Assembly: GCF_006345805.1 (NCBI RefSeq)
Contig: NC_043024.1
Span: 13,516,001 to 13,580,000, forward strand
Source of the DNA: Octopus sinensis
Lineage: Eukaryota
Direction of reading: 5' to 3'
DNA: 64,000 nt
Translations under genes and position numbers: made by a program
Shown: piece after piece, positions 7,221 through 44,743 of the stretch
How positions within the stretch are numbered: position 1 is the first letter of the stretch
Layout: the number at the start of each line of letters is the position of its first letter
The notes under the pieces: generated by a model
The model's input: only the letters and a program-made list of their open reading frames with translations
Databases searched by the model: none
Told to the model about the DNA's origin: nothing

Positions 7221-7353
7221 ACGTGACGTATTTTTGCCATTGCAATATGGCTAACCCCTAAGGGTGGATGCTACTGTAGTTTTAGCCCCAGGAGGACACA
7301 GTAGCATCCACCCTTAGGGGTTAGCCATATTGAAATGGCAAAAATAGTCACGT
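7220..7353. mobile_element. Fold-back element in (TA)n: ~57 bp arms, 20 nt spacer; related to the element at 55615-55838
   Basis: aacgtgacgtatttttgccattgcaatatggctaacccctaagggtggatgctactgt / acagtagcatccacccttaggggttagccatattgaaatggcaaaaatagtcacgtt; TA tracts on both sides. Confidence 0.75.
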
Positions 7354-7396
7354 TGTGTTACCGCTACTGTATATAACTCACATGATATTTATATAA

Positions 7397-8188: not shown

Positions 8189-8299
8189 TCAGTAAATAGT
8201 GGGGTCGTGTTAACCGCACGTGGAGAAATGATAGGAGAGGAAAATGTATAATAAGGCAGAATGCAAAATTGAAAGTAATTTTATATATATATATATAAC

Positions 8300-11214: not shown

Positions 11215-11277
<63 letters not shown>

Positions 11278-11503
11278 CTTTATTTTAAGCAGCAGAAAAT
11301 TCAACAAAATCTGTTACTCTGAGTTCTCGTTGCCGTTCATCAGACAGTTTTTGCTAGCAAAAACTCTCTGATGAACGGCACGAGAAACTCAGAGTACAGA
11401 TTTTGTTGAATTTTCTGCTGCTTAAATAAAGCATATTACTCTACCACTGGTATTTGAGTACTCTTTTTTCCACCTTGTTTCACATTTATGTGTTTACTCC
11501 GGT
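11278..11503. mobile_element. Palindromic element (zero-spacer axis at 11355/11356) with one-sided tail, in (TA)n; two damaged hammerhead motifs; same family as 39807-40043
   Basis: Arms 11278-11355 and 11356-11431 are reverse complements around tttttgctagcaaaaa. Both arms carry ctgatgaacggca(a)cgaga(a)actcagagta with single-base deletions. Confidence 0.85.
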
Positions 11504-14149
11504 CTATATATATATATATATACACATATACAGAAAAAGACGAACAGAGAGAGGGAGGAGTAACCGTTCCATATAAGTGAGTATGCATAAGCACATATAA
11601 TATGTATGTAAGATGTATGTATCTCTCTCTATGGATATGCTAATTTTGGCTATCTACCTCTCAATTAATTTTCAATAGATTACAAGTATAAATGATTGGT
11701 AAACTAATGCAAAATACTTCGCGGATGGTGCTGCAGTCGGATTTCGTAACAAAAAGATTATGGGGTGTAAGCATGCTTCCCTGGACATAAACAGGCGCAT
11801 TTTATTCTATACGTGCTCAAATATATATTTCGAGGAAAAAAATAAACACTTGTGACAAAATGATGTTATATATATTTAATATAATTACAGTAGATACACA
11901 TCAGAGTCCTCAACTTCGTTGTCCCATAACACATTAGGTATGTATTATCGCTGTATGTAGATACGTACATATTTTCTACTGTTTTTGAAGAATTCAGAAT
12001 CCAGCGGAAAATTACGTTAATGTTTGTAAAACTTCATGGAAAATTATTGACATCACGTATTTGAAAATACATTGAGTTGGTGTCAAAGGATAAAACGCTG
12101 TGGGGAAAAGAGGTAAACAATTTGGTTGAGAGCAGAGATAATGACGTTGCGAAGTCAATATCGTGATAATGGTTTATGGACTCGCTCAAGATATTTCTTT
12201 TTAAAGTTGTATATTATTTGGTTTCGTAGGGGTTCAGTGATTTAATTCGACAGAGCAACACGATCGACACCGCTTGTTAGATAATAAGCAGCCTTGCTAC
12301 AGTTTTGTGAAAACTGTCGACCTAACAGCTTAAGAAAATAAACTATACGGATAATGCAATCCAAAGTAAATAGAATTCTGAGTAAGTTGAAGAACATGAC
12401 CATCATGAAGGAATGCATTTGATTATATTTCTCCTGAATCAGGGTGGATGGCAGATAGACGTCATCAACAACATGAAATTTCTCTCCGTTAGGTGGGGTA
12501 TTAAGAATCGATGAAAAGGTTAATTTTTAGCAAGTTACAATTAATTTGAATAGATCGATTAAATCATAATTTAAGTAATATCTATTGAACATAATCTAAT
12601 CTAATTAAAGTTTGATAAAATGTAAAGTGGTTCAGAGAATGGTGGTTTGAGCTTGAATCGAAATAGTAGCAAACTTGAATTTGATTTGTTTAACAGAACT
12701 CGTGAGCCAAGTGCAATCTTTGATTTGTCTGCTAGATCAAAAACGATAGAAATGTATTTTTGTTTTTACACAAGACATATAAACCTTCAGAGGCAAAGCT
12801 CCATCTATCACTGGCTTCAGGGTTACTGGAATTGTGATATAAGTAATACAAGTCTCTCGGAATATATTTCGGAATCCCCGGGACTACTGAAAAGCGTATT
12901 TAACCAAGATGTAATTAGCGGAATCGAACCTGCGATATTCGCACAACTGAATACAGAATTGTATTAATATTTTTTAACAAATAATAGTAAATAATAATAA
13001 TTCTTTCTAATTATTCGAACAAGACTAACAATTATGATTTCATCTAAGATAAACATAGCCATGTAGTGTTATTCAAGGAGTTGCCATTACTAGTCTTTGA
13101 AGCGAACACAAGTATAAGGAAATGTCAGAAGAAAGAACATCACCACAAAGCTTAGACCCTGGGAAGAAGCGTTAACTGGGTCTAAATAAGCTTGGGTCAT
13201 AGGCTGTAGACGACACAGACACGAAAGAGAGAAGAAATGGGAACATCAAGAATGGTTCAGTAAGGAGAAAGTTAAATAGAAGATACAAAAATTTATTTCC
13301 AAAACCAGTCGATGGTGTGCACATTACGATAGTTGACATTTAACTACATCCCTAACATTTATCCTTATAGTCTAGGTAAAATACCTATACAGCTAAATAT
13401 TGCAATGAATTTTCTGTATTGGAAATATTTAAACGCCAAACAGAATTAGTAGTCGGAGAGGTCAGGATATAATCGCCTGCAGACTTTATAAAATAAAAAC
13501 TGAAAAAATGATTGGAAATTAGAAATATTAGCGGTAAATTACCAAGTGTTTGGAAGTGAAAATAAAGAAATAAATGAATAAATGTGAAAGCAGGTAAGAA
13601 TTACGGATAGATTATTAAAGGCTAACTGTAGCAAATCTACAAACTTCGTCCAGGTAAATCCGAAATATCTCTTACGTATTAAGGATCCTTATTAGGAAAA
13701 TATTTGAGCACTTTTCTTATTTGGGGGCTAATTCTCATCTATTATTCAATAAAGACGAAAGAGAATTCATAGTCGGAGAGGCCCAGACTACAGACTATAA
13801 AGAATAAAAAACTTTAATGATGTTTCCCGGTTTTGTAACGCATAAAATAAGGCTCTCAGTAAAAGCTTATTCAACTGATGGCGACATAGGTATTTTCAAC
13901 TTTTCTACAGATATTTGAAAAAAAAAACACACTTGCTCTTCTATTATAAATTCTGTCTACATTATGTCTTCTGCAAAACATAGCTTTACAGATACATAAC
14001 CGAAAATTTCCACCATATTCCCATCCTCGGCTTTAAAAGAGATAGGTGATGTTGATGATTCGGCCTTAATCAGATACGACTCCAAGAACCAGTACCCTAT
14101 ATTAAGCTCTGAAAAATATCGCTGCCATGTTTCTAGGGTCACTATGTTG

Positions 14150-15199: not shown

Positions 15200-15385
15200 G
15201 AGTTGATAGAATCGTTAGCATGCCATGTATAAATACTTAGCGGTCCTCAGTTGATAATCCGCCGAGGTCGACTTAGCGGTTCATCCACTCGCGGTCGATA
15301 AAATAAGTGCCAGCTGATGACTGGGGATGATGTAATCGGCTTATATTTCTTCCGAAATTGCTGGCCTTGTGCCATAATTTTAATC
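15200..15385 (+). mobile_element. Diverged SINE family A copy
   Basis: agaatcgttagc..ccgccgaggtcgactt..ttcatcc..ggtcgataaaataagt..gatgtaatcg..ggccttgtgcc. Confidence 0.75.
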
Positions 15386-15405
15386 CATTATATATATATA
15401 TATAT

Positions 15406-16064
15406 TGGTGGATTCCTCCTTTTCGCCTTCGGCCCAGTGCGTCCATGCTGCCAACAAAGCACGCGGAATTCTGTTTTGATTCGACGGTCATTCGGAATGC
15501 TCACAGCAGCCATATTCCTACCACTCTATGTCACGCTGGTGAGACCCATATTGGAGTATGGGATTCAAGCCTCTTCTCCTTATCTCCTCAAAGACATACA
15601 GCATCTCGAAAGAGTCCAGAAGCTGGCTACCCGCATGGTTCATGGTCTCAAAAATTTGTCCTACGAAGAAAGGCTGAGGACGCTCGACCTTTATTCTCTT
15701 GAAAAACGCCGCCGCCGTGGTGATCTCATTCTCGCCCACACCATCATAAGCGGAAGTGTAACCTCTCGAAAGAGCTGTTCTTCACTCCTGCTCCAGAGCG
15801 TCGGCTGCGGGGTCATTCCGAAAAGCTCTACCTGCGACGATTTCATCTCAATCGAAGGAGAGGAGCTTTCTCCGTCCGGGTTGCGGATCCGTGGAACAAG
15901 CTGCCAGACGAGATGGTGAAGATGCCGACGACCGCTTTGTTCAAAGCCTCCCTTGACCTCAAGTGGCCTGAACTCTTTACATGAACACCACCCTGTACTT
16001 AACTCCATGTCCCCCTACATGGCCTTGCTATTTGCTTTTGAGCCAAATTAACTAACTAACTAAC
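15406..16064 (+). mobile_element. 5'-truncated CR1-clade LINE (ORF2 C-terminus, short 3' UTR, (TAAC)n tail) inserted in (TA)n
   Basis: Across two frameshifts: LVDSSFSPSAQCVHAANKARGILF-IRRSF...LPLYVTLVRPILEYG...KDIQHLERVQKLATRMVHGLKNLSYEERLRTLDLYSLEKRRRRGDLI...LRGHSEKL...FSVRVADPWNKLP...FKASLD, stop at 15982-15984, tail taactaactaactaac. Confidence 0.93.
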
Positions 16065-37974: not shown

Positions 37975-38019
<45 letters not shown>

Positions 38020-38231
38020 AAATATTAGGGAATAAATCCAAACTTACAGGGAAAAATCAGATTTAGGATTGAATCCAATTTTATAGTAAAATATTATATT
38101 ATATTAAATTAGAGATAAAACCACTATTAGGCAAATCAAACAATGAAAAACTTAAGCCAATACATGAGATTAACTAATTTATATTATTTTAAATATATAT
38201 CAAAATTATTAAAAGAAGATAATTAATATAA

Positions 38232-38294
38232 CACTACGATCGTTTCATGGCTGTCCAATTCGTAAAAATTCGAGTTACAGTCATTCTTCAGGTG
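38232..38294 (-). ncRNA. Minimal type I hammerhead ribozyme (mirror copy)
   Basis: Exact reverse complement of 38355-38417. Confidence 0.75.
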
Positions 38295-38354
38295 ATTGAA
38301 ATATTTCACTTGGCGAGTTCATTGATTAAACCTCGCCAAGTTAAATATTTCAAT

Positions 38355-38417
38355 CACCTGAAGAATGACTGTAACTCGAATTTTTACGAATTGGACAGCC
38401 ATGAAACGATCGTAGTG
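38355..38417 (+). ncRNA. Minimal type I hammerhead ribozyme, predicted cleavage after 38414
   Basis: cac-CUGAAGA-[aug.cugu...acag.cau stem II]-GAAAC-gauc-GUA-gug. Stem I is cac/gug; the stem III region ACGAUCGU is self-complementary. Confidence 0.78.
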
Positions 38418-38707
38418 TTATAATAATTATCTTTTTTTAATAAGTTTGATATATATTTAAAATAATATAAATTAATTAATCTTATGTATTGGCTTAAGTT
38501 TTTCATTGTATGATTTGCCTAATAGTGGTTTTATCTCTAATTTAATATAATACATATAAAAATGTATATAAATTACTGCTTTGGTTACAATTTCGACATA
38601 TATACATTTAGGTATATCAATCTATATATATATCTATATCTATGCATATATATATATATAATATATATATACATATATATATACATACATACATACATAC
38701 ATATATA

Positions 38708-38747
<40 letters not shown>

Positions 38748-38831
38748 TATATATTAAATTAGGAAAAAACACTTTTTTATCTATTCAGTAATGAAAATTT
38801 TCATTATACCATTTAGAAAATTTACATATTG

Positions 38832-39187
38832 AATGCACCAATTCACACAGCTAAATTGTTACTGAATGGCATGAGGAACATTCTAGTGAAGTTGAAATTC
38901 GTAAGTGGCTAACACATTCTCCGGGTCTAAATATTTTTGAATAATCATGGTGCATTTTAGAAAAATTTCTAAGGAGACAATATCTCCACCATCATAACTA
39001 CAAGGACTGGAGACTGTTTTAGTTGGGGAATGGACAAAAATTCCTTTGGAAACAATTCAAACTTTGTACGAGTCCATACCTCGTAGAATTCAAGCTGTAA
39101 TTACTGCCAGACGCAGTTGTATCCCATATTAAAATAAATTTCTTTGAAATTTTTAAGATGTTTCCATTACTTTTTCGAATACCTGTA
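38832..39187 (+). mobile_element. Tc1-family transposon 3' half (defective transposase C-terminus plus right TIR)
   Basis: NAPIHTAK..W..SPGLNI..W...QGLETVLVGEWTKIPLETIQTLYESIPRRIQAVITARRSCIPY* (stop 39130-39132); ends tgtttccattactttttcgaatacctg-TA (TIR begins CAGG). Confidence 0.88.
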
Positions 39188-39278
39188 TATATTAGACCGA
39201 CAGATATATAGATAAATAGATACATAGATAGAAAGAGAGATAGATAAATACACATACAAACACATACACACACACACA

Positions 39279-39319
<41 letters not shown>

Positions 39320-39765
39320 TATATACACAGGCACAGACACATACACACACATATGTATATTTATATGCATATATATATACATATGTATATGTGTGAAAGT
39401 GCATACGTGTGTTCGGACGTATTCTCACGTGTGAGTGATGCATTATATCTGATTTACGACAGCATTGATTGGATATGCTTAACTATGAATATTTAAGTGA
39501 TTTCTCCAATAAAAGATCAGTTCCTAGAAATGCCTGGGAGGAAACTGTAAGTCGTAGCACGGACACTCATCTCCGCTCAAGGAGCTCAAGGCGAAAAAAA
39601 GGGATTACGCAAATCCTATCGTTTTGTCACTTATTTATTAATTCTGCACATACCTATCGATATATATTTGTATGCATGCGCACACACATATTTACATGAA
39701 CACACGTACACACATACATACACACGCACACACACACACATACACACACACATACACACACACAC

Positions 39766-39806
<41 letters not shown>

Positions 39807-39810
<4 letters not shown>

Positions 39811-40043
39811 GTAGAGTAATATGCTTTATTTTAAGCAGCAGAAAATTCAACAAAATCTGTTACTCTGAGTTTCTCGTTGCCGTTCATCAGACTAGCAAAA
39901 ACTGTCTGATGAACGGCAACGAGAAACTCAGAGTAACAGATTTTGTTGAATTTTCTGCTGCTTAAAATAAAGCATATTACTCTACCACTGGTATTTGAGT
40001 ACTCTTTTTTTCACCTTGTTTCACATTTATGTGTTTACTCCGG
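39807..40043. mobile_element. Palindromic TA-embedded element with one-sided tail (arms 39807-39892 / 39904-39989); same family as 11278-11503
   Basis: Near-perfect inverted arms; tail ggtatttgagtactc...gtgtttactccggt shared with the 11 kb copy. Confidence 0.88.
39902..39939 (+). ncRNA. Minimal type I hammerhead ribozyme, predicted cleavage after 39935
   Basis: cugu-CUGAUGA-a-cg-gcaa-cg-a-GAAA-cucaga-GUA-acag. Stem I is cugu/acag (extendable aaaa/uuuu); stem II is 2 bp with a GNRA loop; stem III cuc-a-gag is quasi-palindromic. Confidence 0.72.
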
Positions 40044-40065
40044 TATATATATATATATATATATA

Positions 40066-40542
40066 GGAAAAATTGTAAAAATGCAGAATGCTAAATTGAA
40101 AGAAAATTTTAATGAAATGAGAAATTGATAAAATATATAAATATATATTTATTCAAACCGGTTTTCGTTCTGTTTTGCCAACATCCTAAATTAAACTAAA
40201 CAACACATGGCCTTAATCCCATTGGATCGTAATACCTCAAGGTAATTTTTTCGTGAACAATCATTAAACTCAAGATACACAACGAACTCACAATGTATCG
40301 GAGTACTTATTTTTTAATTTTTATACATATTTATTATTATTCTTTTGCCCCTTTCTCATTTTTAAAAAGCTTTTTCACCTAACTATGACGAAAACCGGTC
40401 TGAATAAATATATATTTATATATTTTATCAATTTCTCATTTCATTAAAATTATCTTTCAATTTAGCATTCTGCATTTTTACAATTTTTCTTTGCTTATCA
40501 TTTCTCCATATGCGGTCAACACAACCCCACCATTTATTGATC
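40066..40542. mobile_element. Fold-back element in (TA)n: ~103 bp arms (40066-40168 / 40388-40490), ~220 bp spacer, one-sided tail
   Basis: gaaaaattgtaaaaatgcagaatgctaaattgaaag...attcaaaccggttttcgt versus acgaaaaccggtctgaat...ctttcaatttagcattctgcatttttacaatttttc. Confidence 0.8.
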
Positions 40543-41425: not shown

Positions 41426-41832
41426 GGCGTAAGAGTGGCTGTGTGGTAAGTAGATTGCTTAACAACCACATGGTTCCGGGCTCAGTGCCACTGCGTGGCA
41501 CCTTAGGCAAGTGTATTCTACTATATCCTCGGGCCGACCAAAGCCTTGTGAGTGGATTTGGTAGATGGAAACTGAAAGAAGCCCGTCGTATATATGTATA
41601 TATATATGTATGTGCGTGTATGTTTGTGTGTCTGTGTTTGTCCCCCTAGCATTGCTTGACAACCGATGGTGGTGTGTTTATGTCCCCGTCACTTAGCGGT
41701 TCGGCAAAAGTGATAGAATAAGTACTGTGCTTACAACAGAATAAGTCCCGAGGTCGAGTTGCTCGATTAAAGGCGGTGCTCCAGCATGGCCGCAGTCAAA
41801 ATGACTGAATCAAGTAAAAAGAACAACAAAAA
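41426..41832 (+). mobile_element. SINE family B, full length, ~14 bp TSD
   Basis: ggcgtaagagtggctgtgtggtaag head; aaaaacaag(c/t)agat at 41411-41424 and 41833-41846. Confidence 0.93.
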
Positions 41833-42085: not shown

Positions 42086-42429
42086 ACTCTCTTTTACTCT
42101 TTTACTTGTTTCAGACATTTGACTGCGGCCATGCTGGAGCACCGCCTTTAATCGAGCAACTCGACCCCGGGACTTATTCTTTTTGTAAGCCCAGTACTTA
42201 TTCTATCAGTCTCTTTTTGCCGAACCGCTAAGTGACGGGGACGTAAACACACCAGCATCGGTTGTCAAGGAACGCTAGGGGAACAAACACAGACACACAA
42301 ACACACGCACACACATATATATATATACATATATACGACAGGCTTCTTTCAGTTTCCGTCTACCAAACCCACTCACAAGGCATTGGTCGGCCCAGGGCTA
42401 TAGCAGAAGACACTTGCCCAAGATGCCAC
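42086..42429 (-). mobile_element. SINE family B, 5'-truncated
   Basis: Matches 25780-26150 and 4682-5078; stops at cccaagatgccac. Confidence 0.92.
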
Positions 42430-44218: not shown

Positions 44219-44220
<2 letters not shown>

Positions 44221-44261
44221 CTTCTTCATGTGTAAGTCTTGTTTCCAATATTTCATACACC

Positions 44262-44309
<48 letters not shown>

Positions 44310-44369
44310 ATATGTATGTATATATATATATATAAAATATTGAATACAAGACTTGCACATGAAGAAGTT
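44219..44369. repeat. 35 bp inverted repeat enclosing a CA/TA microsatellite
   Basis: aacttcttcatgtgtaagtcttgtttccaatattt (44219-44253) / aaatattgaatacaagacttgcacatgaagaagtt (44335-44369). Confidence 0.85.
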
Positions 44370-44743
44370 AGTATAAAGACCACAATGATATGTGTGTGTG
44401 TGTTAGAGAGAAAGTGCATATATATATATATATATATATGTGTATGTATATATATAAATATATACGTGTATGTGAGTGCGTGTGTGTTTGTGCATAGGTA
44501 TAGAAAAGCTAAATAGGTATAGTAAGTAATCTTCCGTTTGTGCACTAAAAGTTAAGAACACCCATATATATTGATGCGTGTGTGTGCGTGTGTGTGTGTG
44601 GGTGTATATATATTTTTCTGTAGCTAGAATTACACACATACACCTGTACATATACGTATTCTTACATGGCTATGTGTATGTAAAGTGTAATATATATATT
44701 AATACGTGTATATATATGTGTGTATATATATATATACATATAA

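Follow-up and report, generated by a model that had tools for sequence, protein, structure and literature searches.

A hammerhead-bearing palindrome in Octopus sinensis as a likely Penelope-like insertion of two opposite-oriented repeat ends

The palindrome at 38097-38552 is best explained as two short copies, in opposite orientation, of that end of a high-copy repeat which carries the hammerhead, probably produced in one insertion event by the enzyme of a Penelope-like retrotransposon (PLE). It lies in a window of 64,000 nucleotides of Octopus sinensis DNA, the whole stretch that was analysed, in surroundings that are AT-rich, rich in microsatellites and non-coding. The anatomy of the locus, the abundance of the repeat family and the variability of its junctions were observed directly. 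The repeat whose end forms the palindrome is referred to as family A, and its sequence is known here from the equivalent of 38315 onward only.

The two inverted-repeat arms, 38097-38317 and 38332-38552, are 221 nt each and 97% complementary, with a 14-nt spacer between them, and this pair is the longest inverted repeat among the matches listed for the window. The layout is head-to-head, with the 5' ends of both element copies meeting at the palindrome centre, so that an inverted 5'-truncated copy stands adjacent to the other. A sequence-only reading of the locus had described a palindrome of about 220 bp per arm with an identical hammerhead on each strand and about seven arm mismatches, all outside the ribozyme. 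This description was borne out: the motifs lie at 38355-38417 (plus) and 38232-38294 (minus), and the mismatches number exactly 7 (38342, 38423, 38434, 38444, 38475, 38483 and 38510 on the right arm), leaving 38343-38422 with none. The same reading placed the start of the palindrome at 38025, which is wrong, the start being 38097; it overlooked an 80-nt one-sided tail, 38017-38096, which ends in (TA)n and belongs to the same high-copy family. This tail is unpaired with the other arm and contains an 11-bp stem-loop in the predicted fold. The parts of the locus are as follows.

37978-38016, unstranded: (TA)n microsatellite adjoining the tail, likely the target site (a PLE preference for (TA)n is given in the accessible part of PMC8557442)
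38017-38096, minus: one-sided 80-nt tail that follows the left copy on its 3' side as family sequence and is missing from the right copy
38097-38317, minus: left arm, a 5'-truncated copy of the element end, with tail
38232-38294, minus: hammerhead motif of type I, minus copy, with the predicted cut between 38235 and 38234
38315-38317: GAG, which may be a 3-nt overlap between the left and right copies
38318-38331, plus: spacer of 14 nt, family sequence prolonging the right copy 5' (family contigs align from 38315-38321)
38332-38552, plus: right arm, an inverted copy of the same element end, without tail
38355-38417, plus: hammerhead motif of type I, plus copy, assigned by motif and fold
38406-38413, unstranded: helix III, self-complementary ACGAUCGU, the predicted dimer interface from cofold and pair probabilities
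38545-38552, plus: ATATAATA, occurring a second time at 38012-38019, a candidate 8-bp target-site duplication

On the target side, (TA)n adjoins the tail and AT-rich DNA lies on the opposite side. No clear target-site duplication was found at the palindrome locus. The sole candidate, the 8-bp ATATAATA pair, is composed of A and T only, is no better than chance and occurs in the family sequence too; this is counted against the PLE reading.

Family A is abundant in public sequence data. Contig pieces aligned from four public runs number 11635, 3432, 3379 and 189. On the tail side, 38038-38096 is deeply covered by contigs in all four runs, and cover is about 100-fold lower at 38566-38589 on the other side. 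The summed depth in one of the runs, X1, is about 0.9 million at 38038-38085 versus 9763 at 38566-38589 and none at 38590-38608; it should be mentioned that summed contig depth is no copy number, and that 38609-38680 was left out as repeat. This contrast in depth indicates that the left extension is family sequence and that the right flank is not. At 38091, 13 X1 contigs exit family A into (TA)n. Together with the cover of the tail to about 38017, these exits indicate two family 3' ends, about 75-80 nt apart, and at the palindrome the left copy has the tail and the right copy has none. Scans for the family A pattern returned 0 loci in metagenome contigs, viral contigs and prokaryote genomes.

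Left-to-right junctions of sister copies were collected from the best 15 of 42 and the best 12 of 26 joints, from which 17 distinct left-arm-to-right-arm joints were kept; the joints 38061-38117 (inside the left side) and 38109-38063 (backward) were dropped. Among these listed junctions, none of the 17 retains both hammerheads, 6 retain one hammerhead arm and 11 neither. The 34 arm ends are scattered from 38315 to 38550, and 5 of the 17 listed junctions recur in two to three runs. The figure of 0 of 17 is too strong as it stands, since a junction between two long arms skips only a few bases and such junctions may be missing from the list; later deletion may also account for some of the joints. 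With these limits, the junction set is strong evidence for scattered centres and weaker evidence for the exact proportions. Among the matches listed, there is no contig across the palindrome's own centre, and 38284-38313 is uncovered in a narrower alignment, a gap that proves nothing.

The alleles of the two arms can be compared with those of the family, bearing in mind that contigs go to the better-fitting arm, which biases allele shares. Both arms carry C at 38351, where about 65-70% of the family depth has A. At 38434, 38444, 38475 and 38483 one arm each matches the family majority, and at least four differences look private to one arm. A shared C at 38351 with arm-private differences is as would be expected if both arms were copied from one template and decayed afterwards.

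The motif in each arm is supported, on modelling grounds, as a PLE-type hammerhead of type I with a palindromic helix III. Both strands of the window were searched for the core boxes combined with stem II, 3 bp of stem I and a helix III of palindromic sequence; this descriptor matched 4 times, whereas 50 shuffles that approximately kept the dinucleotide composition averaged 0.04 matches. Rfam returned no family at gathering score anywhere in the window, and no hammerhead model is among its 81 weak matches in 38000-40100; with no qualifying Rfam match, the hammerhead call rests on motif and fold. The best of the weak Rfam matches, to microRNA precursors, were rejected, as such models match any hairpin and these scores are far under the cut-offs. 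The canonical core of the sequence-only reading stands, in type I topology (CUGAAGA at 38358-38364, GAAA at 38403-38406 and GUA at 38412-38414). Its long stem II stands only in part, 38365-38372/38395-38402 having 7 of 8 pairs with one A-C mismatch, pair probabilities of 0.53-0.77 and a 22-nt loop, and stem I (38355-38357/38415-38417) is only 3 bp with a pair probability of about 0.3. Pair 10.1-11.1 is A38365-U38402 and not G-C, and there is no bulge after position 9.

The view of the motif as a dimer-type PLE minimal hammerhead with palindromic stem III is supported, in that ACGAUCGU is predicted to pair only between two molecules. Helix III has a pair probability of 0.02 in the monomer; in a two-copy cofold (-24.0 kcal/mol), ACGAUCGU pairs between molecules as an 8-bp intermolecular helix. 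Dimer cleavage of PLE hammerheads was reportedly described in a 2017 paper in RNA Biology. The predicted fold of a single arm is no more stable than that of shuffled sequence (z=0.72), and the ribozyme monomer fold is -0.9 kcal/mol versus about -319 to -331 kcal/mol for the full hairpin. Loop II contains a short direct repeat at 38376-38392 (CGAATT twice), and is the variable part of the motif among family contigs. Variants within the motif, among the best-supported ones listed, fall in loop II or the stem II ends and not in the core boxes, a constancy which suggests selection in the source elements rather than in the present copy.

When simple repeats were masked, five more loci in the window, from four other families, showed the same layout of (TA)n, inverted arm, sense arm, one-sided tail and (TA)n or simple repeat: 39807-40043 and 11273-11509 (both family B), 40067-40541, 7221-7390 and 44220-44400. 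Three further weak inverted matches were left out because their layout was unfit. Family B is a second hammerhead family, with a CUGAUGA core, a 2-bp stem II with A-A at its base, a near-palindromic helix III and a long stem I. Its palindromes are head-to-head with a 54-nt tail between (TA)n tracts; the two copies are 93% alike and differ at the central junction and at the outer arm end. Both family B sense arms begin at the same CTAGC motif and the antisense arms differ; this start may be an RNA 5' end or a fold-back point.

No complete hammerhead was found by the descriptor in 40067-40541, 7221-7390 or 44220-44400. In the first of these, inverted arms of 102 nt enclose 219 nt that are present in the sense direction only, and a tail of about 52 nt leads up to (TA)n; a fragment of the tail recurs on the minus strand at 8189-8233. 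Its sense arm contains GAAA-ACCG-GUC with a possible flanking 4-bp stem I and no CUGANGA box, and may be a degenerate or split-core hammerhead-like half. The other two palindromes are short, lie in (TA)n tracts and each have a tail on one side; they are probably the shortest stubs of other PLE-type families. Elsewhere in the window, 41495-41709 and 42215-42429 form a 215-nt inverted pair, 90% complementary and 505 nt apart, which looks like opposite-oriented copies of a common interspersed repeat. A 205-aa stop-to-stop frame lies at 15302-15919 on the plus strand, a stretch of which may resemble the C-terminal part of a LINE reverse-transcriptase ORF.

We have compared the locus to PLE insertions as they appear in the accessible parts of the literature. 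The complex insertions described there in PMC8557442 have an inverted 5'-truncated copy adjoining the 5' end, a tail of 30-40 bp that is often one-ended, and (TA)n targets. Rotifer PLEs show the same complex-insertion anatomy, with head-to-head as the most frequent arrangement, in the available portion of PMC3846280. The present locus resembles these insertions (Fig. 2 of PMC8557442; Pen2a/Pen2 of PMC3846280, as accessible) in its head-to-head end, one-sided tail, (TA)n and unclear target-site duplication. Arm size is also alike, about 200 nt here versus 181-218 bp for the A. vaga pLTR in the same portions of PMC3846280/PMC8557442. Copies of family A vary in their 5' truncation and inversion points, as the 17 junctions among the matches listed indicate, and have a tail at one end only, of 74-80 nt, with two alternative family 3' ends; both are features of PLEs.

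Other features differ from PLEs. Direct, partial-tandem pLTRs flanking a body are absent, only two inverted stubs being present at the locus, which is expected because the copy is heavily truncated. Unlike the complex insertions in the parts of those papers seen, the locus has no ORF between the repeats, both copies are truncated within the pLTR, and a 14-nt spacer takes the place of the palindromic overlap. The tail is about twice the 30-40 bp published there, which is counted against the PLE reading. Over the roughly 300 nt of element present there is no ORF of at least 90 aa, and no ORF for the telomerase-like RT and GIY-YIG endonuclease that mark endonuclease-bearing PLEs was tied to family A, so that PLE membership rests on the anatomy.

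The hammerhead gives a mixed comparison. In the accessible text of Cervera and de la Pena 2014 (PMC4209133), dual minimal hammerheads of PLEs occur on opposite strands, 100-700 bp apart; the PLE minimal hammerheads studied there showed no cleavage in monomer form and weak cleavage in dimer form. The family A motif is like these metazoan hammerheads in its long helix II (7 of 8 bp here), short helix I, palindromic helix III and dispersed high-copy occurrence; helix I has 3 bp here versus 4-5 typically and 2 in D. virilis. It departs from the consensus given there in having A10.1-U11.1 for G-C, no extra base after position 9 and a 22-nt loop II, and the first two of these are counted against the PLE reading. 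Metazoan non-LTR retrozymes, as far as the available parts of PMC7229834 and bioRxiv 10.64898/2026.07.22.740005 describe them, are similarly non-coding and low in GC, with a type I hammerhead, a size of about 300 nt and a probable link to PLEs. They are, however, head-to-tail arrays of 150-450 bp units with a type I hammerhead and are characterised by abundant linear and circular RNA; no direct unit repeat is present in the window, and the locus lacks their canonical 6-bp helix I. Either an autonomous PLE or a non-coding retrozyme-like element could have supplied the source RNA. No specific report of an octopus PLE hammerhead was found in the open-access literature covered.

A route to the layout is suggested by Poseidon PAc of Anolis, studied in vitro by Frangieh et al. 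2024 (PMC11167929, accessible in part). According to that part, the purified protein cleaves and extends both strands and prefers AT-rich DNA, reverse transcription starts at two RNA sites bounding the tail, and the hammerhead is protein-assisted and dispensable in vitro, with no RNA-seq ends at the cut. The present locus shares with PAc a tail delimited by two 3' ends and, probably, an AT-rich target, and nicking and extension of both strands would yield its layout. PAc differs in that its ORF starts inside the hammerhead and reverse transcription starts within the ORF, whereas here the hammerhead is followed on its 3' side by very AT-rich, non-coding sequence.

From this comparison we infer the enzyme, the priming on two strands and the neutral fate of the arms. 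The RT-endonuclease of an endonuclease-bearing PLE would have made a nick in each strand of an AT-rich/(TA)n target, and from either nick one cDNA would have been primed on element RNA. The left cDNA would have begun at the outer start site and so included the tail (38017), and the right one at the inner start site, without tail (about 38552-38558). After about 300 and 235 nt the cDNAs would have halted near the 5' end of a pseudo-LTR RNA and been joined head-to-head, perhaps via the 3-nt GAG overlap. The arms would afterwards have decayed neutrally (7 differences). The hammerhead would then be a passenger. In the source RNA it would have had a function, likely that of a weak ribozyme helped by dimer formation or by protein, and it would be present on both strands only since both cDNAs happened to pass it.

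The main rival is the same kind of insertion with the inverted arm made by self-priming or fold-back, from a junction hairpin or possibly on an antisense template. A single locus cannot tell two-strand priming from fold-back priming, and the balance of evidence makes fold-back rather unlikely. Self-priming from palindromes at inverted junctions is proposed in the accessible part of PMC3846280. In family B, the turning point of the copy at 11273 coincides exactly with a GCTAGC palindrome, at which both B sense arms begin, and sense-arm starts of family A cluster at 38315-38326 (5 of the 17 among the matches listed), although this cluster may be an edge effect of the reference sequence. Against fold-back, the centre of the present palindrome is occupied by 14 nt of sense family sequence that are not themselves palindromic, and family contigs do not run on into 38308-38313, as would be needed for a natural hairpin. 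Moreover, a self-folded cDNA cannot gain a tail that was absent from its own start.

It is highly improbable that the whole palindrome was the unit of copying, as in a non-autonomous MITE-like or foldback element. Long near-perfect inverted arms with no ORF would fit such a unit. The arms are asymmetric with a tail on one side only, however, the centres vary among the 17 listed sister junctions and between the two family B copies, and the window holds a single family A copy. The varying centres and the one-sided tail already largely refute it.

Equally hard to sustain is a maintained regulatory device, in which the hairpin turns the ribozyme off or supplies dsRNA to small-RNA pathways. The geometry on which this idea was built is correct: whichever strand is transcribed, a read-through transcript has the antisense arm ahead of the sense arm, and the predicted hairpin would dominate it and bury the ribozyme. 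This would arise at any such insertion, so that no selection is needed to explain it. Rotifer PLEs with inverted ends give antisense small RNAs in the part of PMC3846280 available, which makes incidental dsRNA plausible; nevertheless, dsRNA from a hairpin requires no intact ribozyme. The absence of mismatches from the ribozyme segment, which the sequence-only reading had pointed out, is not significant. With 7 mismatches placed randomly in 221 nt, the 63-nt motif is clean with P=0.09, a 70-nt segment with P=0.07, and a mismatch-free gap of at least 80 nt occurs anywhere in the arm with P=0.32, values compatible with chance. The listed sister junctions disregard the hammerhead: they invert elsewhere, and mostly at least one arm lacks the motif. 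In the window, palindromes that share the layout but have no complete hammerhead motif are common. Given the chance-level mismatches and the sister junctions, a built-in off switch or maintained dsRNA source is not supported, and nothing specific on a hairpin or siRNA switch role of PLE hammerheads was found in the open-access literature covered.

Least probable of all is a fold-back artefact of the library or the assembly. Amplification and assembly can both produce long palindromes, but here the arms differ at 7 sites, several of which match one arm to the family majority, the spacer is non-palindromic, the outer flanks differ, five other loci have the same layout and similar junctions recur in independent runs.

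Under the preferred reading of a PLE insertion with two primed cDNAs, the arm ends of family A may also bear on ribozyme activity. Two of the 34 arm ends among the matches listed coincide with the base directly following the predicted cut, 38415, or with its mirror. The joint 38214-38415 is exact at the predicted cut (2 contigs in X1), and the joint 38234-38432 lies at the mirror position, ambiguous by one base, and was seen in X1 and in a second run, X2. Under a uniform spread, 2 of 34 has P of about 0.01-0.07 depending on tolerance, but the real ends are not spread uniformly, repeated ends occur at other positions as well, and the joints listed are a selection. A narrow contig alignment aimed at 38415 listed no joints, with no loose end at 38415 among the best 12 of 68, and a strong 5'-end hotspot at this position has no support. 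The two ends are a weak hint of cleavage in vivo. That some cDNAs stop after GUA because their template was the 3' cleavage product, the scars recording ribozyme cutting in vivo, is a doubtful but tentatively offered proposal.

Whether PLE hammerheads cut in vivo is left open by the papers compared, in the parts accessible, and the arm ends of family A bear on this question. If the proposal is true, family A, with its unusually long tail of 80 nt and its A-U closing pair, would provide genome-scale evidence for in vivo cutting by a PLE hammerhead and for two independently primed cDNAs per palindrome, in contrast with the in vitro study, in whose accessible part no RNA-seq ends lie at the cut and cleavage is dispensable. 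The single locus matters little, being one of very many PLE-type insertion stubs. Taken as a population, the junctions of the family are a record of how PLE reverse transcriptases start, stop and join.
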